From positions 2,580,692 to 2,604,691 of the forward strand of contig NZ_CP031093.1 in the NCBI RefSeq assembly GCF_004851605.1: a stretch of DNA of 24,000 nucleotides, read 5' to 3'. The notes under the pieces are model-generated. The model was not told where the DNA came from, did not search any database, and saw only the letters and a list, made by a program, of their open reading frames with translations. Origin of the DNA: Hydrocarboniclastica marina. Lineage in GTDB: Bacteria; Pseudomonadota; Gammaproteobacteria; Pseudomonadales; Oleiphilaceae. A program made the position numbers and the translations under genes. Below are positions 1 to 21,714 of the stretch, one piece after another (position 1 is the stretch's first letter; each line of letters opens with the position of its first letter).

Positions 1-718
1 CATCATTCACGTAGAGCCGCTGGTTGCCGGGGGCAAGCACCATATGCTCTGGGTTGCCGCCAACTCGCAAATTGCGCTCGACGAACCAGTGCTCGGTATC
101 CACTTCGCTGACCGTGCCATTACCGGTATTGCTGACCAGAAGGGATTGGCCGTCGTCGGTTTGCACCAGATAGTTGGGGGCCGGCCCCGTCGCCACAGTT
201 TTGACCAACTGACCGGAATCCAGATCCACAACGCTGATACTGCCACGGGCAGGATGCGTGGAAACGGCATAGCGACCGTTGGAAGTCACCAGCACATGGT
301 GCACAGGCCCCGGCACTTCCAGTTTGCGGTCAATCGTCTTTGTGGCCGTGTTCACCAAATAGAGCAGCCCGGTACTCCCTGCTTCCAATTCAGTAGACTT
401 CCCGCCCCCATGATGAGCGGCGTGTTCATCTTCTGAAACGCCTTCGGGGCGACTAACCGGCTCCTGACGATCATGCGCCGACAAACTACCCACCACCAGA
501 TGCCGGCCATCCGGGGTCAGTGCCGAACCGTGGGTATTCAGTGTGCCGCCAATGTACGAAGTCACCTTGCGGTTTTCCAGATCAATAACGCCGACGGCAT
601 CCGCCGTGCCCATGGGAACAAATGCCCGGTTCGTGTCTGCGGCCACCATCAGCGAAAAACTCATAGCGACACTGGCCGTAATACCAGCAATACACTGCTT
701 GCGCAACGAATGGTTCAT
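1..718 (-). CDS. YVTN-family beta-propeller repeat protein, secreted/periplasmic (N-terminal 239 aa; 3' end lies beyond the left edge)
   Basis: Absent from the ORF track because it runs off the edge. ATG at 718-716 (minus). Translation MNHSLRKQCIAGITASVAMSFSLMVAADTNRAFVPMGTADAVGVIDLENRKV... has a signal peptide and repeated blade-like segments (GSALTPDGRHLVVGS, VHHVLVTSNGRYAVSTH, PNYLVQTDDGQSLLVSN, PEHMVLAPGNQRLYVND), plus a His-rich insert EDEHAAHHGGG. Confidence 0.75.
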   Translation of the reverse strand, partial: MNHSLRKQCIAGITASVAMSFSLMVAADTNRAFVPMGTADAVGVIDLENRKVTSYIGGTLNTHGSALTPDGRHLVVGSLSAHDRQEPVSRPEGVSEDEHAAHHGGGKSTELEAGSTGLLYLVNTATKTIDRKLEVPGPVHHVLVTSNGRYAVSTHPARGSISVVDLDSGQLVKTVATGPAPNYLVQTDDGQSLLVSNTGNGTVSEVDTEHWFVERNLRVGGNPEHMVLAPGNQRLYVND

Positions 719-819: not shown

Positions 820-836
820 CTGAAACAGGCCTGAAA
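820..836 (-). promoter_or_regulatory. PhoP-type direct-repeat box (minus strand TTTCAG-GCCTG-TTTCAG), 102 nt upstream of the YVTN gene start
   Basis: Plus strand reads CTGAAA-CAGGC-CTGAAA. The hexamer-N5-hexamer pattern recurs at 7691, 10963, 10997 and 14338. Confidence 0.45.
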
Positions 837-2902: not shown

Positions 2903-3288
2903 TCAGATCGATTCCACAACCTCAGAGAGCATATCCCTGACCTTCCCGGCAACCTGCTTGAGCTCGTCATTATCGATGGCGCTCATGGAAGCCAATGGAT
3001 CCACTGCACTTACCTCAATGCCCTCCGAAACCTCACGAAGAATAACGTTGCAAGGCAGCATGGCACCCACGCGAGGCTCCACACCGATGGCTTCCCAGGC
3101 CATGCCAGGATTGCAGGTCCCGAGAATCCGATAGGCCTGCATATCCTTGTCCAGCTTTTCTTCATGGTGGCTTTGACATCAATTTCTGTCAGCACACCGA
3201 AGCCGTGATCAGTGAGGGCCTGACGCGCTCTTCTGTCCACGTCCTCGAAATCGACATCTTTGATAACTCGATCGATTGTGTATGACAT
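2903..3288 (-). pseudogene. DUF302-family protein interrupted by a frameshift (or by a homopolymer sequencing error)
   Basis: Two overlapping track ORFs (3010..3300 and 2903..3142) are the two halves of one DUF302 protein: MSYTIDRVIKDVDFEDVDRRARQALTDHGFGVLTEIDVKATMKK / (K)LDKDMQAYRILGTCNPGMAWEAIGVEPRVGAMLPCNVILRE.... Adding one A to the A4 run (plus T4 at 3156-3159) restores ...TMKKKLDKDMQAYRILG.... GGAGG SD precedes the ATG at 3288. Confidence 0.75.
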
Positions 3289-3312
3289 AGCTACCTCCAA
3301 TGATTCAGAAGT

Positions 3313-7690: not shown

Positions 7691-7707
7691 CTGAACTGCG
7701 GCTGAAA
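7691..7707 (-). promoter_or_regulatory. PhoP-type box (minus strand TTTCAG-CCGCA-GTTCAG), 53 nt upstream of the 7638 start
   Basis: Plus strand reads CTGAAC-TGCGG-CTGAAA. It lies in the intergenic region between the copB terminator and the HMA-like gene. Confidence 0.45.
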
Positions 7708-10962: not shown

Positions 10963-10979
10963 CTGAATTCTTTCTGAAA
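10963..10979 (-). promoter_or_regulatory. PhoP-type box (minus strand TTTCAG-AAAGA-ATTCAG), 99 nt upstream of the copI-like start
   Basis: Plus strand reads CTGAAT-TCTTT-CTGAAA. Both hexamers are identical to the box at 14338. The flanks (A-TCGA...TTCC) are also similar. Confidence 0.5.
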
Positions 10980-10996
10980 AACTCGAACTATTTTCC

Positions 10997-11013
10997 GTTC
11001 AGGCTGAATTCAG
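10997..11013 (+). promoter_or_regulatory. PhoP-type box (plus strand GTTCAG-GCTGA-ATTCAG), 51 nt upstream of the response-regulator start; probable autoregulation site
   Basis: This is the only copy on the plus strand, and it faces the only plus-strand target (the TCS operon). It is part of an inverted arrangement TAACCTGAATTC...GAATTCAGGTTA. Confidence 0.5.
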
Positions 11014-11063: not shown

Positions 11064-11729
11064 ATGCGTTTACTGCTCGTCGAAGATGACCGCTTGCTTG
11101 CTGAGGGTCTGGTCAGGCAGTTGGGAAAAGCAGGTTTCAGCGTTGATACAACTCCCAGTGCCCGAGAAGCCGTCGTTCTGGGTGAGCAAGAGGATTACCG
11201 TGCTGTTGTTCTGGACCTGGGTCTACCTGATGGCAACGGGCTGGACGTATTGAGAAAGTGGCGAACGAATCACGTCAGCTGTCCGGTCTTGATTCTGACC
11301 GCGAGAGGCGATTGGCAGGATAAGGTTAACGGCTTAAAAGCCGGGGCAGACGATTACCTGGCAAAACCTTTTCAGACAGAAGAGCTAATCGCACGCCTCA
11401 ACGCACTCGTGCGTCGAAGTGAAGGAAGGATCCATACTCAGGTTAAAGCCGGCCGCTTTGAACTGGACGAAAACCGCCAGAGTCTCAAGATGGACGACGG
11501 CGTGGAACATACACTTACCGGCACCGAATTCCGGCTGCTACGTTGTTTGATGAGCCGCCCTGGCCACGTCTTTTCCAAAGAACAACTAATGGAACAGCTT
11601 TACAACTTGAATGATAGCCCGAGCGAAAACGTCATTGAGGCGTATATTCGGAGGTTAAGGAAGCTAGTGGGCAGCGAAACCATCTCAACACGACGCGGCC
11701 AGGGGTACATTTTTAATGCGATTCCTTAA
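11064..11729 (+). CDS. OmpR/PhoB-family response regulator, PhoP-like
   Basis: Receiver domain (VEDD...DLGLPDGNGLDVLRKWR...LILTARGDWQDKVNGLKAGADDYLAKPF) plus a winged-helix C-terminus (...TRRGQGYIF). From memory, the LDLGLPD..GL...R.WR.N.VS.P.L.LTAR..WQDKV pattern closely follows enterobacterial PhoP. Confidence 0.9.
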   Translation: MRLLLVEDDRLLAEGLVRQLGKAGFSVDTTPSAREAVVLGEQEDYRAVVLDLGLPDGNGLDVLRKWRTNHVSCPVLILTARGDWQDKVNGLKAGADDYLAKPFQTEELIARLNALVRRSEGRIHTQVKAGRFELDENRQSLKMDDGVEHTLTGTEFRLLRCLMSRPGHVFSKEQLMEQLYNLNDSPSENVIEAYIRRLRKLVGSETISTRRGQGYIFNAIP

Positions 11730-13050
11730 AAAGCCTGCGTCCGTAAAAGGAACCTTGCTTGCGCTGTTACTGCCCGCCGGAATTGGTCTAATGGGGGTGG
11801 CGTGGTTGGTCCATGGCTTGCTGCTCGACCGAATGTCTCGGGAATTCGTTGAAAGCCGACTGAAAGATGAAGTCGTTTTCCTTGAGCACCAGATTCGCGA
11901 CGCGAATGGTGAAGTTGACACTCTCCAGACGGGCGATTATTTCCAGGATGTTTTTCATCATGCCTTTGCCATACATACACCCGAACAGACCATCATTTCA
12001 CCCGATACTTGGGAGCCCTTGTTAACGCCTCTGATTGAAAACGAAGAAGACGGAACCGTTCGCGTAGAAGATGCCGAAACCACTGATACTCCCTTAGACA
12101 TCCTCGCCTACCGAAAGTCTTTTCAGGTCGGTGAAACACCCATCGTCGTAATCGTTTCTGAAGATCTGGGTGCGCTGAAACGCAGCCAAGCTGCACTTCA
12201 TACCTGGACCGCCGTAGTATCAGTTCTGTTGATTATGCTCTTGGTCGCCGTGCTCTGGTTCGGAATCACGATGTCCATGCGACCGGTTGTCACACTCAAA
12301 GCCGCATTAAAAAGACTCCAGGACGGAGAGATCTCCCGAATCAACGTTCAGTCGCCAGAGGAGTTCCACCCGCTGGTTCTTCAACTAAATCAGTTGCTGG
12401 ACTCCTTAGATCAGCGACTGGAGCGCTCCAGGGACGCTCTCGCAAACCTGTCTCATAGCGTCAAAACCCCCATCGCAGCCGTCCGGCAGATACTGGAAGA
12501 CGACACACGTCCTCTCGACACCAATCTAAGGCGCCAGATGGTGGAGCGACTAAGCGATATCGACAGGCAATTAGAAGCTGAAATGCGTCGAAGCCGTTTT
12601 GCAGGGCCCCAGATTGGAAAAAGCGCCTACCCCATAAAACAGGCACGGGATCTTTTGTGGATGCTCGGTCGTTTATATCCGGAAAAGTCGTTTGAACTAT
12701 CGAGTTCTCTGCCTGAAGACAGCCGATGGCCGATAGAAGAACATGATCTAAATGAAGTATTGGGCAACTTACTCGACAATGCTGGCAAATGGTCTTCGAG
12801 ATGCGTAGAGCTCTCTGTGGAACAAGGCAGCGGCTTCAAGCGAATAGTTGTTGCTGATGATGGCCCAGGGGTTAATCACAAGGATTTAGCCAGTTTGGGC
12901 CAAAGGGGTCTGCGGCTAGATGAGCAAACACCTGGGCACGGTCTCGGCCTTGCTATCGTTCGAGATATAGTGACTCGCTATGAAGGTAAAATCAGCTTTT
13001 CGACTAAGTCCTGTAGCGGTTTACGCGTTTCTATCGAATTATTAAGATAA
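11716..13050 (+). CDS. Sensor histidine kinase, PhoQ-like
   Basis: Two TM helices flank an acidic periplasmic domain of about 150 aa. HAMP region. H-box LSHSVKTPIAAV, N-box LGNLLDNAGKW, DDGPGV, GHGLGLAIV. Overlaps the regulator gene by 14 nt. Confidence 0.9.
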   Translation: MRFLKKPASVKGTLLALLLPAGIGLMGVAWLVHGLLLDRMSREFVESRLKDEVVFLEHQIRDANGEVDTLQTGDYFQDVFHHAFAIHTPEQTIISPDTWEPLLTPLIENEEDGTVRVEDAETTDTPLDILAYRKSFQVGETPIVVIVSEDLGALKRSQAALHTWTAVVSVLLIMLLVAVLWFGITMSMRPVVTLKAALKRLQDGEISRINVQSPEEFHPLVLQLNQLLDSLDQRLERSRDALANLSHSVKTPIAAVRQILEDDTRPLDTNLRRQMVERLSDIDRQLEAEMRRSRFAGPQIGKSAYPIKQARDLLWMLGRLYPEKSFELSSSLPEDSRWPIEEHDLNEVLGNLLDNAGKWSSRCVELSVEQGSGFKRIVVADDGPGVNHKDLASLGQRGLRLDEQTPGHGLGLAIVRDIVTRYEGKISFSTKSCSGLRVSIELLR

Positions 13051-13116
13051 AATCGAATGTTCGCTTTTGTTTAAAAGCCCATCTTTGAGACTGGTCAAAG
13101 CTCGAATAATCATGTT

Positions 13117-13332
13117 CTATGAAACAGCTCCCTCTTGCCATTTTTTAATCACGTTCCGCAGTTTTAAGAGCCCCGCCTCAGTGTCCATCAGCGTGACCGG
13201 CGCTTGATTGCCTATAGCCCGGATCGGAGATGACAGCCATAGTTCAGCTTTCAGTCTATCGTCTTCGAAAAGCTCCAGAACCTCACAATAGACCTGCTCT
13301 CTCAGCTCGGCCACAGCCCGCTCTTCACTCAT
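13117..13332 (-). CDS. Stand-alone DUF2384 (ParS/MbcA/Xre antitoxin toxin-binding domain) protein, copy A
   Basis: MSEERAVAELREQVYCEVLELFEDDRLKAELWLSSPIRAIGNQAPVTLMDTEAGLLKLRNVIKKWQEGAVS fits the DUF2384 pattern W(L/M)..P...LGG..P..L..T..G...V...L..I..G. AGGAG SD lies 7 nt before the ATG at 13332 (track start 13401). Confidence 0.65.
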   Translation of the reverse strand: MSEERAVAELREQVYCEVLELFEDDRLKAELWLSSPIRAIGNQAPVTLMDTEAGLLKLRNVIKKWQEGAVS

Positions 13333-13393
13333 ATCAATACTCCTGTAGTGATCAACTAATCCCCGACAAATTGGTTGGCTCCTGGCCAATTGC

Positions 13394-13436
13394 TTGGTCA
13401 AACACTGTGATCGTGTATTGTGGAATTCGACCGGTC
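13394..13436 (+). promoter_or_regulatory. Candidate sigma-70 promoter (TTGGTC-N16-TATTGT) and palindromic operator GACCGGTC for small-protein gene A
   Basis: -35 at 13394-13399, -10 at 13416-13421, palindrome at 13429-13436. All three elements are conserved in the diverged inverted copy at 18301-18343. Confidence 0.4.
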
Positions 13437-13465
13437 AAAAATCTAATTTCACAAGAGATTTATCT

Positions 13466-13714
13466 ATGAAGAACGTACTCGACCAAATCAGTTCATTGCT
13501 CAAAGAAGCGCTGGCTGTCGCAGAAACTCTCGATGGCTTCAAAGGGAGCACAGCGACACTGGATTTGTCCTGTTTCGACGGCAGCACCGCCACTATCACC
13601 GAGACGCTCGACAACCTGTGCGATGACACCGACACCTCAGGATCGTGCTGCGCAACCAGACCGTTGCAGCAGGCCCTGGTAACTGGGCATGGACACGGCG
13701 TAGAGCAGTCGTAA
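13466..13714 (+). CDS. Small acidic Ser/Thr-rich protein, paralog A (82 aa), unknown function
   Basis: MKNVLDQISSLLKEALAVAETLDGFKGSTATLDLSCFDGSTATITETLDNLCDDTDTSGS.... By hand alignment, 31 of the first 60 residues are identical to the protein at 18264..18010. The in-frame upstream extension in the track is in a different frame relative to the homologous DNA of copy C, so the ATG at 13466 is preferred. Confidence 0.55.
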   Translation: MKNVLDQISSLLKEALAVAETLDGFKGSTATLDLSCFDGSTATITETLDNLCDDTDTSGSCCATRPLQQALVTGHGHGVEQS

Positions 13715-13892
13715 ACTCCGGAGAAATTCCGCCCGCGACCAGTAGGATGCGCGCGTGTCGAGGAGAACGGACCCAATGTATGCGCAGATCCAGCGCCATA
13801 TCCTGTATCAAATGCTGCGCATGGGAGCCGATAGCCGGATAGACAGATACCGGGGCTTTAGACGCTAGACGGGCAAGCCAGGTCACTGCCAT
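13596..13892 (-). pseudogene. NuoB-like (complex I 20-kDa subunit family) fragment lacking the Fe-S cysteines and the C-terminal half
   Basis: MAVTWLARLASKAPVSVYPAIGSHAQHLIQDMALDLRIHWVRSPRHARILLVAGGISPEFTTALRRVHAQLPGPAATVW.... By recollection of the NuoB pattern, it aligns with ...FGLACCAIEM...RFG...ASPRQAD..IVAGT......ALR.VYDQMPEPK.V. The CC pair is replaced by HA. Recognisable similarity stops near 13653. The ATG overlaps the nuoA-like stop by 10 nt and GGAGG lies upstream. Confidence 0.5.
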
Positions 13893-14236
13893 TTGAAGGC
13901 ACCCTCCCGCCAGCCATAAACGATACCCACGGAAAGGATGGCCAGAAACATCCCCATCTCGACCAGGGCCTTGACCCCCTCCTCCACGTAGACAACCGCC
14001 CATGGATACATGAACATCATCTCCATCTCGAAAGCGATCAAGAGCAGCGTCATGGGATAATAGCGGACGTGGAACCGGCTCCAGGCGTGGGTGTCAGGTG
14101 CTCCGCCCCCAAGAAAGGGCGCACGTTGAGGCCAGGACGGTTTTGCCGTCGAGAAAGGACTGCAGATCACCAGCAGCCCTGCTGTGAATGTCGCGATGCT
14201 GATAGTCATCAGTGTCGCTAGCTCCGTTAGCTCCAT
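13883..14236 (-). CDS. NuoA/ND3-like three-TM membrane protein (orphan)
   Basis: 117 aa. ...RFHVRYYPMTLLLIAFEMEMMFMYPWAVVY...LVEMGMFLAILSVGIVYGWREGAFKWQ matches the NuoA/Nqo7 layout (F.V.FY.VA..F..FD.E..FL.PWA......G.Y.W..G...W). The usual YE(S/C)G is replaced by FLGGG. GGGAG SD. Confidence 0.7.
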   Translation of the reverse strand: MELTELATLMTISIATFTAGLLVICSPFSTAKPSWPQRAPFLGGGAPDTHAWSRFHVRYYPMTLLLIAFEMEMMFMYPWAVVYVEEGVKALVEMGMFLAILSVGIVYGWREGAFKWQ

Positions 14237-14337
14237 GCCAACAGTCTCCCTTCCATCTTTGCCAGAGCCGGATCCATCCGTTGGGTTCTAGGACTATCTT
14301 AAGGCAGCGTGCAACGCTTTGAGGATCTCAGCCAAAA

Positions 14338-14354
14338 CTGAATTCAAACTGAAA
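14338..14354 (-). promoter_or_regulatory. PhoP-type box (minus strand TTTCAG-TTTGA-ATTCAG), 102 nt upstream of the nuoA-like start
   Basis: Plus strand reads CTGAAT-TCAAA-CTGAAA. Both hexamers are identical to 10963-10979. An extra GTTCAG half-site (plus CTGAAC at 14365-14370) lies 11 nt upstream on the minus strand. Confidence 0.5.
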
Positions 14355-14677
14355 ATTCGATGTTCCTGAACGGTTGGTAATTCTCACTCCTCCATTGCCG
14401 ACAGGTTGCCGCCAACTGTATCGTGATTCTAGGCGCCTCTGAGCCGTACCGACGGTGTGTTACGTCATTATTGAACAGAGCTGAAGCTGGCGGTCTAATC
14501 TCGCTTATGAACACGTATTAGGGGCCATGCCCTAGTGACCCGCTCCCCTCTGCTAAAACTGAGGGCTTACCCTTTCAGCATATATTGGCTCGTCTTGAGC
14601 TCAGATCTGCCAACAGAAAGCCAACCAGATTTCTCGCGAGCCTCACAGAAAGTTCAGTAACAAATCGTGGGACTGGC

Positions 14678-14887
14678 TTAGCTGAAGTCACCGGCCTCTA
14701 TCTTACGGAGCACTTCCGAAACCCTACATCGTCCTTCAGTCGTATTTAGAAGCTCGATCGGACTTTTGCCGCCCAGAGCTAGAACCGGGCTGTGGAGCCA
14801 TTCTTCTGCAGCGACCTGTGACTCCCATACCTCACGAGCTTGACGAAGTACGCGAGCGGTGTCGTGATTTCCTACGATGTTCTCCAT
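14678..14887 (-). CDS. Stand-alone DUF2384 antitoxin-domain protein, copy B
   Basis: MENIVGNHDTARVLRQAREVWESQVAAEEWLHSPVLALGGKSPIELLNTTEGRCRVSEVLRKIEAGDFS carries the canonical DUF2384 core WL.SP..ALGGKSP..LL.T..G. Start is 14887 (GAGG upstream) or 14902. Confidence 0.65.
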   Translation of the reverse strand: MENIVGNHDTARVLRQAREVWESQVAAEEWLHSPVLALGGKSPIELLNTTEGRCRVSEVLRKIEAGDFS

Positions 14888-14965
14888 ACATGCAGACCTC
14901 AATGATTAAGTGACCTGTCCACTAGAGAATAAGTGGCCGCTGATCTGGCAGCGACAGCGCCAAGC

Positions 14966-14995
14966 TTAAGATAGCAGCAGGTCATTCGATATAAT
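14966..14995 (+). promoter_or_regulatory. Candidate sigma-70 promoter TTAAGA-N18-TATAAT reading into a region with no convincing ORF
   Basis: Perfect TATAAT at 14990-14995 and TTAAGA at 14966-14971. It is divergent from DUF2384 copy B. Confidence 0.3.
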
Positions 14996-15816
14996 GTTGC
15001 CCCACCTTGGTGTTGCCACGAAGCGAAGTGCACCAAAAGTGTATCTTTAGTCAACTTTCTGATCCTTGGATGGGCTATGGGTGGCCGGGGATTTCAGCAA
15101 AGGTTCACGATTGGTACACAATTGGTCGACTGTCAGCATTACGTCGAAGCCAGCACCACCGATGTGCACGCTTGTTTCGCTATTTCAGATTGCACTCATT
15201 CTCGGCTAATTACGTCAAAGTCGCGTTTACTCTACTGGACATCGACACACTTGTTTCAGACAATACCCGTGCATTGAGGCATTGCCTCAGCTGCGTCTAG
15301 CTGGGACCGTAAAATAAACAGCACGCGAAAATATCGGGTTAAACGACTCGCTCAGCAATGCCCTTCTTCGGGGCCCCTCCTATAAAGTTCCTCAGGACTC
15401 CCTTAAACGCCAGGTTTGGCATCAATAGCACCAACATCTCTCAATTTCTCTGTTCTGGTTATATGACCTTAAAAAATTGAGATGCATTAGGCTGGATGGA
15501 GCTCACCGCCTGCTATCAGGCATTCCTAAGCTTTATTCCAACATCACGAGCAACGAAACCCTGAACGAAACCTCAGGCTGGGTGGACTACCCGTAGTCAG
15601 CGGTGCGTCATCATCGTCACCACTCAATCATCGCTCTCGCCCTAACCCACCACAGAACTGGTGCCCCAACCTCACATCTCGCGCTGACTGCGTGAAGCCC
15701 ACCCCGGCCAGAAATGGTACCGCTGGTTTGTGAGGAACAATCAATCGCGCACGCAGCAGCGCAAACGGAGACCCGGAGCCATGATCTGGAAATGGTTAAA
15801 ACTGACTCAGCAGACG

Positions 15817-15858
15817 GGGGCAGGGTCTACGAGTGTGGAAACCAGACGGCCCTGCCCC
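15817..15858 (+). other. Stable hairpin (9-bp GC-rich stem, 24-nt loop) about 70 nt upstream of the recombinase gene
   Basis: GGGGCAGGG (15817-15825) pairs with CCCTGCCCC (15850-15858). CAGACGG occurs as a direct repeat just before each arm. No T-tract follows. Confidence 0.4.
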
Positions 15859-15930
15859 AGATGCTGAGGGTTTGCCACACAACATGCTGCACACAATGAG
15901 AGGAGAAGATCGTTAACAGGAAAACATGAG

Positions 15931-16932
15931 ATGCAAAAAATACGCTTTAGCAGGAACAAGAACCAGCGCAATTTCGGTCTGGGCCACCACCCGGGCTACG
16001 CCGCGCAGGTCGCTCTCGCACAAATGTATGGAGGAGACAAGCATTACTACACCCGCTTCACCCATCGTGCCAGATTTGAGCATTGTCTGAACTGGGCGTC
16101 GGAACTCGACATCCCAATTCGCGATCTGCGCCAGATCACATTGGCACACGCCGTCGAGTACGGACAGGCCCTCGCGGATTCTGTCGCCTCTGGAGGTATG
16201 GAGGTTGCCTATGCACAGAACCTCATCTCGACGTTGAATGTCGTCATGCGGGCAGTCCGCCGAGACCGAAAAGTTTGGCTATCGCCGGCCGGCGTGGTCG
16301 GCAAACGATCCTACGTTAGAACGGTTTTGCCAACGGCCACATGGGATAAAGTGATAGAGGCAGTGAGGTTGGCAGAAACCGCGGGCAACTATCGAGGAGC
16401 AGCTCTGGTTCTGCTGTGGCGAGCGTTCGGTATGCGCTTCAGGGAAGCGGCCCAGGCTAACCTCCACCGGATGATGACTGAGGCTCAAGCCTACGGTACC
16501 GCGCGGGTATTGGAAGGAACGAAAGGAGGTTTCAGATCTGATGATAGGAGGATCAGGATTGAAAGTGTCCAGTGGCAAGCTCTTGACTACGCACTTCACA
16601 CAATTTCCATTTCGGGGACGTGCCTGATTGATACAAACACATCCCTCAAAGAATTCCTCAATCGGCACGCCAGCCCCATGCGCCAGATTCTCAAACAGGT
16701 CGGAATCCAATGCCCGAAAGATTTACGTGCGGAGCGATTTATAGACGTCTACGAGCGAGCGAGCGGTCAGCCAGCTCCGCTGAAACAATACGGGTCGTTC
16801 GACAGGGAAGCGGACGCCATAGGCAGACTCGCTGTAGGTCATGAGGGGGGTCATAAACGCCCGACAATCTCAACGTCTTACGTGGGCGAACGGCATCGGA
16901 CCAACCACGGAGAAGGGAGACCCAGGCGATGA
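15931..16932 (+). CDS. Tyrosine recombinase / integrase-domain protein (Integrase_1-like with an N-terminal SAM-like domain)
   Basis: 333 aa. Candidate catalytic residues: Arg in AFGMRFREA, Lys in EGTKGGF, KDLRAERF (HxxR-like), GHEGG, and Tyr in TSYVG. The N-terminus (...THRARFEHCLNWASELDIPIRDLRQITLAHAVEY) resembles phage-integrase N-terminal SAM-like domains. Confidence 0.65.
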   Translation: MQKIRFSRNKNQRNFGLGHHPGYAAQVALAQMYGGDKHYYTRFTHRARFEHCLNWASELDIPIRDLRQITLAHAVEYGQALADSVASGGMEVAYAQNLISTLNVVMRAVRRDRKVWLSPAGVVGKRSYVRTVLPTATWDKVIEAVRLAETAGNYRGAALVLLWRAFGMRFREAAQANLHRMMTEAQAYGTARVLEGTKGGFRSDDRRIRIESVQWQALDYALHTISISGTCLIDTNTSLKEFLNRHASPMRQILKQVGIQCPKDLRAERFIDVYERASGQPAPLKQYGSFDREADAIGRLAVGHEGGHKRPTISTSYVGERHRTNHGEGRPRR

Positions 16933-17279
16933 ATCTCAGCTACATCTATAGACGCATCAAGGCCAAGGAAGGCGCTGAGAGGGCGCGAAGGCGCCATCTT
17001 AACCGTATTGCGAAAATGACTTCGGCTATCGAGCAACGGTTTCCCAAGGTCAAACGCGTGCAGCAGATAGATCAGAAACATTGCAAATGGCTGATTGAGC
17101 ACTGGTGCAACCCGTCCACGGAGAAAGATTATCGAAGCTCGCTTCGTCTCTTGTTGGAGGCCTCCGACCGTAGTCCGGAGTGGCTAAAACAGCTGGGAAT
17201 GGCCTCGACCTCAACTGGTGGACGTCCACGAGAAGTGTCCGTTGTGCGTTCACGATCATCGAGGTACTGGATGGAGTGA
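16929..17279 (+). CDS. Hypothetical protein, possibly a stand-alone integrase N-terminal SAM-like domain
   Basis: ATGA overlap with the recombinase stop. RFPKVKRVQQIDQKHCKWLIEHW resembles the I(G)xKHxxW core of integrase N-terminal domains. Basic protein. Confidence 0.45.
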   Translation: MNLSYIYRRIKAKEGAERARRRHLNRIAKMTSAIEQRFPKVKRVQQIDQKHCKWLIEHWCNPSTEKDYRSSLRLLLEASDRSPEWLKQLGMASTSTGGRPREVSVVRSRSSRYWME

Positions 17280-17417
17280 GACACGCTGCGTCTGGTGTAT
17301 TATGCAAGCTGAAGTCGGTACTGTGTCCGACACTATTCACTAATGAGCTCCGGACCAAAACTCAGCAGTACTGAGCCGAAGATCCTCTGGTTCATATGTG
17401 CGAAGTGGTGAGGAAAC

Positions 17418-17717
17418 GTGAGCAAGGTGAAGCCAGCTGACAACCTGAGAGAATTTGTGCGGATACGCCATGATCTTGCCGACTTAACAGAATGCCGGGA
17501 GGATGTCAGTGAGCAGAGTATGGAGGAACTCCAGAACAGAGCGTGGGAAGAGGTCCTTGCGTTGTTCGAGGGGGATGAAACTGGTGCTCGGGGGTGGATG
17601 AAACGAAACAGACCGTATCTGGGCAACGTCACGCCAGAGGAAATGCTGGATTCTGCAGAAGGCATTCGCCGTCTACGGCAATTTGTTCAACAGTTAGAGA
17701 GAGGCGTCCTTCCGTAG
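17418..17717 (+). CDS. DUF2384 antitoxin-domain protein, copy C (with a 34-aa N-terminal extension)
   Basis: ...MEELQNRAWEEVLALFEGDETGARGWMKRNRPYLGNVTPEEMLDSAEGIRRLRQFVQQLERGVLP aligns with copy A along its whole core. GTG start at 17418 with GAGG 5 nt upstream; alternative ATG at 17520. Confidence 0.6.
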   Translation: MSKVKPADNLREFVRIRHDLADLTECREDVSEQSMEELQNRAWEEVLALFEGDETGARGWMKRNRPYLGNVTPEEMLDSAEGIRRLRQFVQQLERGVLP

Positions 17718-17740
17718 TACGACGAAAAATCAGCGAATTA

Positions 17741-17764
17741 CCTCGATCGCGCTTGCGATCGAGG
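17741..17764. terminator. Hairpin between convergent genes (possible bidirectional terminator)
   Basis: Perfect 10-bp stem CCTCGATCGC-GCTT-GCGATCGAGG. On the minus strand a T5 run follows 12 nt downstream. Confidence 0.5.
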
Positions 17765-17785
17765 CTCCGGACAGAAACCTCCCTT

Positions 17786-17997
17786 TCAGTGGCTCTTTAT
17801 CGCGTCGCGCATAAAATCAGCACCAGTCTCAATGTTCATCGTGGCGTGAAGCCGGTGCGGCTCGTCAGAATTGCGGTACATATCCAGAGTAATCCAGTCC
17901 TCACCTCGCCGCATTTGGATTGTCAGGTGCATCTCGTCAAAACCGACTGCTTAGAAAGAGCAGCAGCCAGTTGCTGTGCCTGCGTCATGTATTCCAT
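17786..17997 (-). pseudogene. 70-aa hypothetical protein split by a homopolymer frameshift; second gene of the small-protein C operon
   Basis: GGGAG SD lies 6 nt before the ATG at 17997, which is 12 nt after the upstream stop. Frame 1 is MEYMTQAQQLAAALSKQSVLTRCT*. The adjacent frame is ...FDEMHLTIQMRRGEDWITLDMYRNSDEPHRLHATMNIETGADFMRDAIKSH*. Adding one T to TTTT (plus A4 at 17939-17942) fuses them. A 48-aa ORF starting at MHLTIQ could alternatively stand alone. Confidence 0.4.
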
Positions 17998-18009
17998 TGG
18001 GTGCTCCCG

Positions 18010-18264
18010 TCAGAACCAAGTGTCGGTTTTGATATCGCCAAGCTGGTCCGCCGCCGCACTGAGCCCGGGGGAACTCTGTATTGATGATCCGGAAATGTCC
18101 GTTTTGGTGTCCAGGGCTTCCATCGTCTCGGTAATAGTGGCTGTCTGGCCGTCAGAACAAGTCAGTTCAAGTGTCACTTTCGCGTTTTTGAAGTGTTCGA
18201 TGGTCCAGGCAATAATGAGCGCCTCCTTCAAGACATCACTGGTCTGACTGCATTGATACTGCAT
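18010..18264 (-). CDS. Small acidic Ser/Thr-rich protein, paralog C (84 aa), unknown function
   Basis: MQYQCSQTSDVLKEALIIAWTIEHFKNAKVTLELTCSDGQTATITETMEALDTKTDISGS... is paralogous to 13466..13714. GAAGGA SD. The 59-codon N-terminal extension in the track covers the conserved promoter and is probably not translated. Confidence 0.55.
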   Translation of the reverse strand: MQYQCSQTSDVLKEALIIAWTIEHFKNAKVTLELTCSDGQTATITETMEALDTKTDISGSSIQSSPGLSAAADQLGDIKTDTWF

Positions 18265-18300
18265 CTGCGAATTCCTTCTGAAATAGTGGTTAAGTTGTTC

Positions 18301-18343
18301 GACCGGTCTGATTTCAAGATACACGAATTCACCGTTTGACCTA
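18301..18343 (-). promoter_or_regulatory. Conserved promoter (TAGGTC-N16-TATCTT) and GACCGGTC palindrome of small-protein gene C
   Basis: By hand count, 44/60 nt are identical to 13377-13436 in inverted orientation. Spacing of -35, -10 and palindrome is identical. Confidence 0.4.
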
Positions 18344-18556
18344 GCGATTGGCTCCGAGTCTGGGTGAAGGTATCCTTGAGGAAGGTGTGAGCAGTCGGAT
18401 AGGAAGCTGGATAGCACGAGGAAAGCGTTCCGCGCAGGCATAGATTAGTTGCGCAGCGGTAGAAGATTGGTCGCTTTCTAAGCGATCCGGGGATGATGGG
18501 ACTAATGATGGGACAACCACACAGCTCATTCTAATCAATTGATTCGAAAGAGATAG

Positions 18557-18632
<76 letters not shown>

Positions 18633-18805
18633 GCGGGAGGAATTATAGAGGGGTGAATAGTAGGAATCCACGCAATTTTTCAGGCACGACGCAGTCGCAG
18701 GCTCGAGCCAAAAAAGTCACTCTTTCACAGTTCTATCGTTACCGGGGGTATTTAGGTCAAACAAATTATTCTGAGGTTAACACTGTTCTCACTTTTTGGA
18801 TGGCT

Positions 18806-21500: not shown

Positions 21501-21526
21501 GGTGACAGTGGCCGAGCGGTGTTAGT

Positions 21527-21714
21527 GGTGGGCATTGCCCACCCTACGGGGTCGAGTTGGGCGTAGGATGCGCAATGCGCATCATGATCCGGCCGTCGAT
21601 ATTTGTTGGTGCGCGGTGCGCACCCTACGGGTCGAGTTGGGTGTAGGGTGCGCAATGCGCACCATGGTCCCGCCGTCGATATTCGCTGGTGCGCGGTGCG
21701 CACACTACGTGTCC
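21527..21714. repeat. REP/BIME-like cluster: about 2.3 tandem copies of an 80-81-bp unit built from alternating palindromes
   Basis: Units start at 21527, 21608 and 21688. The palindromes are GGTGGGCATTGCCCACC-CTAC, GTAGG-ATGCGCAATGCGCAT, GGTGCGCGGTGCGCACC-CTAC, GTAGG-GTGCGCAATGCGCAC and GGTGCGCGGTGCGCAC-ACTAC. Confidence 0.85.

Follow-up and report, generated by a model that had tools for sequence, protein, structure and literature searches.

The nuoA-like gene and the open reading frame behind it

The DNA analyzed here (the window) is a stretch of 24,000 nucleotides from Hydrocarboniclastica marina (contig NZ_CP031093.1, positions 2,580,692 to 2,604,691), and the element in question is a pair of overlapping open reading frames (ORFs) on its minus strand between positions 13596 and 14236. 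The original prediction had described this pair as an orphan nuoA-like gene translationally coupled to a cysteine-less NuoB-like gene, located away from any respiratory complex genes and recruited as a membrane module into a stress regulon. The first gene (13883 to 14236) is intact and codes for a typical family member of 117 amino acids. Its product was matched by the Pfam profile PF00507 (Oxidored_q4) with 84.7 bits (cutoff 23.3) over profile positions 7 to 99 of 99 and by solved NdhC/NuoA chains with E-values from 1e-17 to 1e-9, and the three transmembrane (TM) helices as well as the FExE, PWA, and GxxYxW motifs are kept, which bears out the NuoA-like layout claimed for it. The predicted replacement of YE(S/C)G by FLGGG was likewise recovered in the alignments to the solved chains, where FLGG of the window protein is placed opposite YE(S/C)G, and FLGGG is at least 90% conserved across the NuoA-like family. 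YE(C/S)G is a conserved NuoA motif, which is situated in the loop between TM helices 1 and 2 and lines the quinone cavity. All five NuoA equivalog models of NCBIfam stayed far under their cutoffs, the best score being 79.2 bits versus 163.

The identity of the NuoA-like protein to members of its family ranges from 63 to 91%, and its closest non-identical relative is a protein (P0002) encoded at a related locus, L005 (91%). Among 81 sequences, no substitution at columns conserved to at least 90% was found in the window protein, and the ratio of nonsynonymous to synonymous substitution rates (dN/dS) of the gene was 0.10–0.16 in comparisons with L005 and another related locus, L006. Taken together, these two results indicate that most of the divergence accumulated under selection and that the truncation described below is recent. 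The dN/dS of the window branch may be slightly higher, with counts too small for a conclusion of relaxed selection.

The second ORF runs from an ATG at 13892 to 13596 (98 codons), with a 10-nt overlap between its start and the end of the nuoA-like gene. The segment SPRHA..LLVAG..ALRRVHAQLPGP aligns to NuoB/PSST, with a core reading SPRHA..LLVAG..LRRVHAQLPGP. Thus the ORF, its overlap, its core motif, and its lack of cysteines agree with what had been predicted, but only codons 1–83 (13644 to 13892, minus strand, 249 nt) are NuoB-like. These codons are the first 83 of a NuoB/NuoD-fusion gene and encode its NuoB-like N-terminal domain, and their product is 84% identical to residues 1–83 of a 424-amino-acid protein of L005. 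The remaining 15 codons and the stop (13596 to 13643, minus strand) are foreign, run antisense to a truncated small gene, and close what is a chimeric ORF. The 83 NuoB-homologous residues contain no cysteine, including the region of the N2 ligands; in NuoB/PSST, four cysteines ligate the Fe-S cluster N2. The profile searches suggested in the original prediction came out in favor of the first gene only: Oxidored_q4 exceeded its cutoff, whereas the 98-amino-acid ORF obtained 18.3 bits with PF01058 (Oxidored_q6; cutoff 27; profile positions 12–72 of 128) and 21 bits with TIGR01957 (cutoff 142.7). A homologue search with the 83-residue fragment returned only the 98-amino-acid ORF of the window itself, which is a word-index effect and not biology because tblastn and a search with the full-length protein gave hundreds of hits. 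What had been called a NuoB-like gene is no separate gene but the 5′ end of a gene for a NuoB/NuoD fusion of about 424 amino acids. A canonical NuoA/NuoB function is rejected for the pair because the equivalog scores are too low and both the YE(C/S)G motif and the cysteines for N2 are missing. Using tblastn with family-specific queries, no homologues of nuoH–N were found in the window, which upholds for these genes the predicted absence of further nuo homologues.

The point at which the NuoB-like part ends could be located by comparison with related loci. The window shares with them a block on the minus strand (13644 to 14445) that contains the promoter region, the nuoA-like gene, and the first 249 nt of the fusion gene: in blastn alignments, 13644–14445 corresponds to L006 10593–9790 (84.7% identity), 13644–14359 to L005 (84.5%), and 13644–14137 to a third locus, L007. 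Homology to these three closest loci stops at exactly 13644, the last base of codon 83, and a three-way alignment with L005 and L006 collapses directly past ...GGTTGCGCAGCACG. On the protein level, L005 continues as ...TVWLRST-PPAELVNE..., whereas the window reads ...TVWLRST-ILRCRCHRTGCRASR*. Upstream, the homology to the parent loci continues to 14445, and the stump thus retains its native regulatory region.

On the other side of the break lies a small ORF on the plus strand (13466 to 13714, 82 amino acids), whose residues 1–60 belong to a family of proteins with 84–86 amino acids and whose residues 61–82 are read-through into the antisense strand of the nuoB/D gene. It matches its family up to residue 60, ending at 13645, and lacks the conserved C-terminus ...QTPP..SLADQLGDIKKNxWF; a paralogue at 18010–18264 (minus strand) shares 52% identity over residues 1–60 (31/60) and three identities in the last 22 residues. 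Since the break on the nuo side is at 13644 and that on the side of the small gene at 13645, a single rearrangement junction (13644/13645, within about 2 nt) truncates two convergent genes, each of which is closed by accidental codons from the antisense strand of the other. The junction is present in seven contigs, among them the Tara Oceans contig L003 (99.97% identity over 5.7 kb) and the 827-bp contig L004 (100%). As these two stem from independent assemblies of different projects (ERZ907630 and ERZ23491054, respectively), it is not an assembly artefact. Near 13400–14500, no partial tRNA-Thr copies (att repeats) that might explain the junction were found. Neither insertion sequence ends nor inverted repeats bracket the fragment, the single match being an inverted pair of 23 nt and 83% identity that probably arose by chance, and no remnant of a RES toxin was found between the antitoxin-like gene at 14678–14902 and the nuo fragment. 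The small-protein family itself (P0242–P0257) is unannotated and has no Pfam or NCBIfam match; as a module it is repeated 5–11 times within large proteins (P0247, 629 amino acids; P0249, 1954 amino acids), and one intact copy of the small gene adjoins tRNA-Thr.

The parent operon and its NuoB/NuoD fusion protein

A set of 80 related genome loci was searched by tblastn with the eight proteins of the L005 operon. All eight genes were present in every locus with enough downstream DNA, in the order nuoA-like, NuoB/NuoD fusion (290–440 amino acids), nuoH, J, K, L, M, and N; this operon does not include genes for NuoC, E, F, G, or I. In Chromohalobacter, Stutzerimonas, and L005, the nuoA-like gene heads the operon and the second protein has 424–436 amino acids and a weak Complex1_49kDa match. 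The second protein breaks off after residue 83 only in the window and in the identical metagenome copies L003 and L004. The relatives of the NuoA-like protein number in the hundreds (112–121 amino acids), and their hosts include Halomonadaceae, Marinobacter, Stutzerimonas, Wenzhouxiangella, Rhodobacterales, Aurantimonadaceae, Actinomycetota, and others. The operon is sometimes plasmid-borne, and some genomes hold two family copies, as illustrated by L051 and L081, which are two contigs of one metagenome-assembled genome. The 10-nt overlap of the nuoA-like and the second gene is conserved in 75 of 79 loci. In this comparison of sequences the loss of cysteines, the FLGGG motif, the 10-nt overlap, and a direct-repeat box (TTCAG-N6-TTCAG, see below) are all traits of the family, and the truncation is the sole private lesion of the window.

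These results divide the original prediction. The view that the changes reflect long-term evolution of a distinct family was correct, as about 80 diverse genomes share them. The accompanying statements that the pair is autonomous and away from respiratory complex genes, and that it is not a fragment of a nuo operon, do not hold: relatives with enough downstream DNA carry the full operon, and the pair is a fragment of the family's own A-B/D-H-J-K-L-M-N operon, which is not the canonical nuo operon. A B protein without the N2 cysteines and a full-length B subunit, whose recurrence in other genomes had been proposed as a check, do recur in about 80 loci, but as a B/D fusion within an eight-gene operon.

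An alignment of 30 members of the fusion protein (A2) revealed an N-terminal NuoB-like half-domain, a Gly/Met-rich segment, and a shortened NuoD-like body. Searches against NCBIfam and Pfam gave sub-threshold NuoB and weak NuoD (Complex1_49kDa) matches, the N-terminus corresponding to NuoB and the C-terminus to Complex1_49kDa, and some sources label the protein “NADH-quinone oxidoreductase subunit D-related protein.” Within the first 110 residues, 45 of 69 full-length members have no cysteine at all, and there is no conserved cysteine column. Between the NuoB-like and NuoD-like parts lies a near-invariant Gly/Met-rich loop, GHGGEGMMGGxPYGRPMAM (residues ~132–164 of P0122). An AlphaFold2 model of the fusion had a predicted local distance difference test score of 88.5 and a predicted template modeling score of 0.86; residues 132–164, which comprise the Met-rich loop, were not modeled with confidence and are predicted to be disordered in the monomer. 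The best matches of this model in a Foldseek search of the PDB were NuoD/49-kDa/NdhH and HycE. At the position that in our reading of the alignment corresponds to the canonical GPQHPxxHG motif, the fusion has LGPFxPxLPPGL, and its ETPRG presumably is the equivalent of E(A)P(K/R)G of canonical NuoD. According to the alignment, the fusion proteins end in SLDLAAV. Met-rich motifs are typical of Cu(I) sites, and given the copper context described below the conserved loop is suggestive of such a site.

With respect to neighboring genes, egtB and egtD of ergothioneine biosynthesis were observed directly downstream of nuoN in 18 of the 80 loci, including many copies from Halomonadaceae (for example at L086 20102–22374). 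In Stutzerimonas, a gene for an FdhA-like molybdopterin protein is located directly upstream of the operon. The idea of an FDH-Ehr assembly was tried and rejected, as an FdhA-like gene occurs within 10 kb in just 4 of the 80 loci and hence is no general partner.

The direct-repeat box, the copper link, and the surrounding island

The direct-repeat box TTCAG-N6-TTCAG (TTCAGTTTGAATTCAG) upstream of the nuoA-like gene lies on the minus strand at 14338–14353 (extended match 14335–14353), its 3′ end 102 nt before the ATG, and is a putative CopR-type site. The window contains five exact copies, each of them upstream of a gene, and eight matches at no more than one mismatch versus 1.5 expected. The other exact copies are at 820–835 (minus strand, 102 nt from the ATG at 718 of a gene for a secreted beta-propeller protein that runs off the left end), 10963–10978 (minus strand, 99 nt before the ATG of a cupredoxin gene), 10998–11013 (plus strand, 51 nt before copR), and 7691–7706 (minus strand, 53 nt before ORF7285). 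The box that had been predicted as PhoP-type and its 102-nt geometry were thus found at nuoA and at the left-end gene. The latter (1–718, minus strand) codes for a beta-propeller-like protein with a signal peptide and probably belongs to the same regulon. The likely reader of the box is a putative copR-copS-type two-component system at 11064–13050 (plus strand), an OmpR-family regulator and a HAMP histidine kinase: the pair is 83 and 81% identical, respectively, to a pair beside the copper genes of Marinobacter aromaticivorans (L016), and a homologous regulator/kinase pair is annotated in the copper cluster of Halomonas sp. KO116. A possible −10 hexamer, TAAGAT, can be read at 14296–14301 (minus strand), with TAGGCT and TAAGCT at the same position in L005 and L006, respectively. 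A consensus scan detected neither a significant sigma-70 site in front of nuoA nor a credible terminator behind the stump, and the single match in an Rfam scan of the window was a tRNA.

Beyond the window, an exact box in the same orientation was found 106–154 nt upstream of nuoA in 27 of the 80 loci, which amounts to a density of 1.13 per kb versus a background of 0.013 per kb (about 87-fold). In related loci the box also precedes genes for multicopper oxidases, cupredoxin, copR, and permeases. A plasmid of Halomonas sp. KO116 has the gene order copC, copD, azurin, response regulator, histidine kinase, multicopper oxidase, copB, hypothetical, glutaredoxin, APC permease, nuoA, hypothetical, nuoH, J, K, L, M, N, egtB, and egtD, and carries four exact boxes (0.03 expected) at 47–95 nt upstream of the azurin, multicopper oxidase, permease, and nuoA genes. 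About 17–25 of the 80 loci have copper genes at a distance of up to 10 kb from the operon. In Marinobacter atlanticus CP1, a copper-resistance cluster is reported to be interrupted by a cassette of nuoA, a hypothetical gene, and nuoH/J/K/L whose expression goes along with that of the cluster (Eddie et al., 2021, PMC8233155); in a literature search for a CopR regulon with nuo genes in halophiles and for partial operons of the nuoAHJKLMN type, this was the only directly relevant paper. The box shared with copR, cupredoxin, and other genes of the copper cluster suggests CopR control of the parent operon, and on this sequence evidence it is reasonable to assign the parent family to a CopR-type regulon. 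Of the predicted stress-regulon module, the stand-alone A/B module does not stand, whereas the family does appear tied to a metal-stress regulon by the shared box, by synteny, and by the published co-expression of what, from its gene order, seems to be the same cassette. The statement that nothing of this kind was known to have been described needs correction as well, since a complex-I-like cassette had already been linked to copper genes (Eddie et al., 2021, PMC8233155).

Several further features of the surrounding island were recorded. Just downstream of a copper P-type ATPase gene, a DUF302 gene (2903–3300, minus strand) is split over two frames (ORFs 3010–3300 and 2903–3142) and appears to be a frameshift pseudogene; homologous DNA in M. 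aromaticivorans (L016 2851–3247) has the cop genes on one side and the nuo-like operon on the other. Three genes for antitoxins of the Xre/MbcA/ParS type occur within 5 kb (13117–13401, minus strand; 14678–14902, minus strand; 17427–17717, plus strand), none with a recognizable RES-type toxin partner adjacent, and the region resembles a graveyard of toxin-antitoxin fragments. The mosaic block from copS to tRNA-Thr(CGT) (12947–18650) is 99.97% identical to the Tara Oceans contig L003, whereas the pilB/pilC genes flanking it in L003 are just 85–88% identical to the window, which suggests a recent horizontal spread of the block. An Integrase_1-type gene (15931–16932) is situated within the block, the tRNA-Thr(CGT) gene (18557–18632) adjoins pilA, and the pilB-pilC intergenic region contains a tandem duplication of ~81–108 nt (21526–21713; 87% identity).

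Probable origin of the pair and relation to known systems

Very probably, the pair is the truncated 5′ remnant of a copper-cluster-associated, Fe-S-less, eight-gene complex-I-like operon and thus a case of genome decay, not a two-gene module. Illegitimate recombination or a deletion at 13644/13645 would have eliminated the remainder of the fusion gene together with the six downstream genes for membrane subunits, and the stump would then have been joined tail-to-tail with a small gene of the 84-amino-acid family that was cut at the same point. What survives is the regulatory region with the box, the intact nuoA-like gene, and 83 codons of the fusion closed by 15 accidental ones. The neighboring CopRS-type system probably still switches the stump on under copper, which would yield an unpartnered NuoA-like protein with three TM helices and a chimeric peptide of 98 amino acids, and transcription would proceed antisense through the small gene. 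In all likelihood, the stump serves neither respiration nor ion pumping and is heading to loss. Some points weigh against this reconstruction. Both the persisting inducibility and the lack of function are inferred; the nuoA-like gene is perfectly intact, so that purifying selection after the truncation is possible; and a second, complete operon elsewhere in the genome may use this NuoA. No related locus has the small gene beside the operon. In addition, the box was assigned to CopR from position and co-occurrence, and the M. atlanticus cassette was likened to the family from the published gene order.

A stand-alone membrane module of two NuoA/NuoB-derived proteins, recruited to a copper or stress regulon and working in its present form, would agree with the two open and translationally coupled reading frames behind a conserved box and with the intact NuoA. 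Against it, however, the short form is represented by one sequence at 100% identity while related loci with enough downstream DNA carry the eight-gene operon, the 98-amino-acid ORF ends with 15 codons antisense to another truncated gene, and its NuoB-like piece is a half-domain of a larger fusion protein; this explanation is already largely refuted, and we regard it as very improbable. Somewhat less improbable, though still unlikely, is that the truncation is real and nuoA was kept as a working gene, be it as a spare or alternative A subunit for a complete paralogous operon elsewhere in the genome or as a small copper-induced membrane protein in a new role. The gene shows no lesion, its promoter, box, and ribosome binding site are intact, the identical allele occurs in seven contigs from several samples, and some genomes hold two family copies (L051/L081), but identical sequences provide no evidence of selection after the event and no partners are supplied within the window. 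NuoA subunits are also not known to work alone, which counts against such a role. That the junction itself is a mis-assembly or chimera might be suspected because the region is pieced together from short fragments and repeated modules (the three antitoxin-like genes and two small-gene paralogues); with the same junction in L003 and L004 at 99.97–100% identity across it, the probability of such an error is practically negligible.

The locus should consequently be annotated as a pseudogene remnant, made up of a nuoA-like gene and a B/D gene cut short, rather than as a new two-gene module of respiratory origin. The stump itself is of low interest; the uncharacterized parent family to which it points is the more interesting and worth study, being a widespread operon that numerous marine bacteria possess alongside copper-resistance genes and that shares a putative regulator box with these. 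This family is already known insofar as it is labeled by annotation pipelines, was flagged by one paper, and probably falls within the broad complex-I-like/Ehr-type class. Going by its gene content, the parent complex would retain the whole membrane arm of complex I with a cofactor-less cap while lacking cluster N2 as well as NuoC, E, F, G, and I, and it probably is a copper-induced ion-translocating machine whose vestigial Q-module carries the conserved Met-rich loop. A more specific model, a CopR-controlled derivative of complex I that is free of redox cofactors, binds Cu(I) with this loop, and uses its membrane arm for copper or ion handling driven by the proton motive force, is conceivable but doubtful. 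If true, it would mean a new job for the complex I scaffold, and the stump would represent a naturally occurring allele with the promoter and the A subunit only. Such repurposing of the scaffold as a copper-stress device would also explain why the operon is a recurrent passenger of marine copper-resistance islands.

Among described systems, the cassette of M. atlanticus CP1 (ACP86_11540–11570; PMC8233155) is alike in containing a nuoA-like gene, a “hypothetical” second gene, and nuoH/J/K/L-type genes. It lies within a copper-resistance cluster and is co-expressed with copA and other copper genes, and the window fragment and its full-length relatives are located in a similar cluster; the window differs in that of such a cassette it holds just nuoA and the first 83 codons of the next gene, together with the promoter. 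The report on M. atlanticus counted seven genes, annotated them differently, and described neither the regulator box nor the cysteine-less B/D fusion (PMC8233155). Ehr (energy-converting hydrogenase-related) and other complex-I-like assemblies (Marreiros et al., 2013), as portrayed in secondary descriptions (PMC6349859, PMC4758237), resemble the family in their complex-I/group-4-hydrogenase scaffold, their antiporter-like subunits, and the loss of metal ligands; the parent B/D protein lacks NiFe and Fe-S ligands and has a NuoD/HycE-like fold. In a few loci of the family, an FdhA-like gene is adjacent. The gene set of the family differs in being of the nuo type (A, H, J, K, L, M, N) with a B/D fusion, in having no NuoI or NuoC, and in its link to copper genes.

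With canonical NuoA (ND3), the window protein shares the three-TM layout, the acidic pair of FExE in TM helix 2, PWA, and the GxxYxW end, and the core of NuoB (PSST/Nqo6), SPRQAD..VAG..LRRVYDQMP, has its match in the B-like segment. Unlike these subunits, the pair has neither the YE(C/S)G motif nor the cysteines for N2, and its B-like part scores under the Pfam threshold; in contrast to canonical complex I, the family has B fused to a shortened NuoD-like domain without the histidines of GPQHPxxHG. A further parallel is offered by the Mrp-type cation/proton antiporters and the MBH/MBS membrane arms, as NuoL, M, and N are homologous to MrpA/D. By analogy with Mrp, the cofactor-free, complex-I-related membrane subunits of the family would likewise work as an ion translocator. 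The family differs in keeping NuoA, H, J, and K together with a cytoplasmic B/D cap, which are absent from Mrp.

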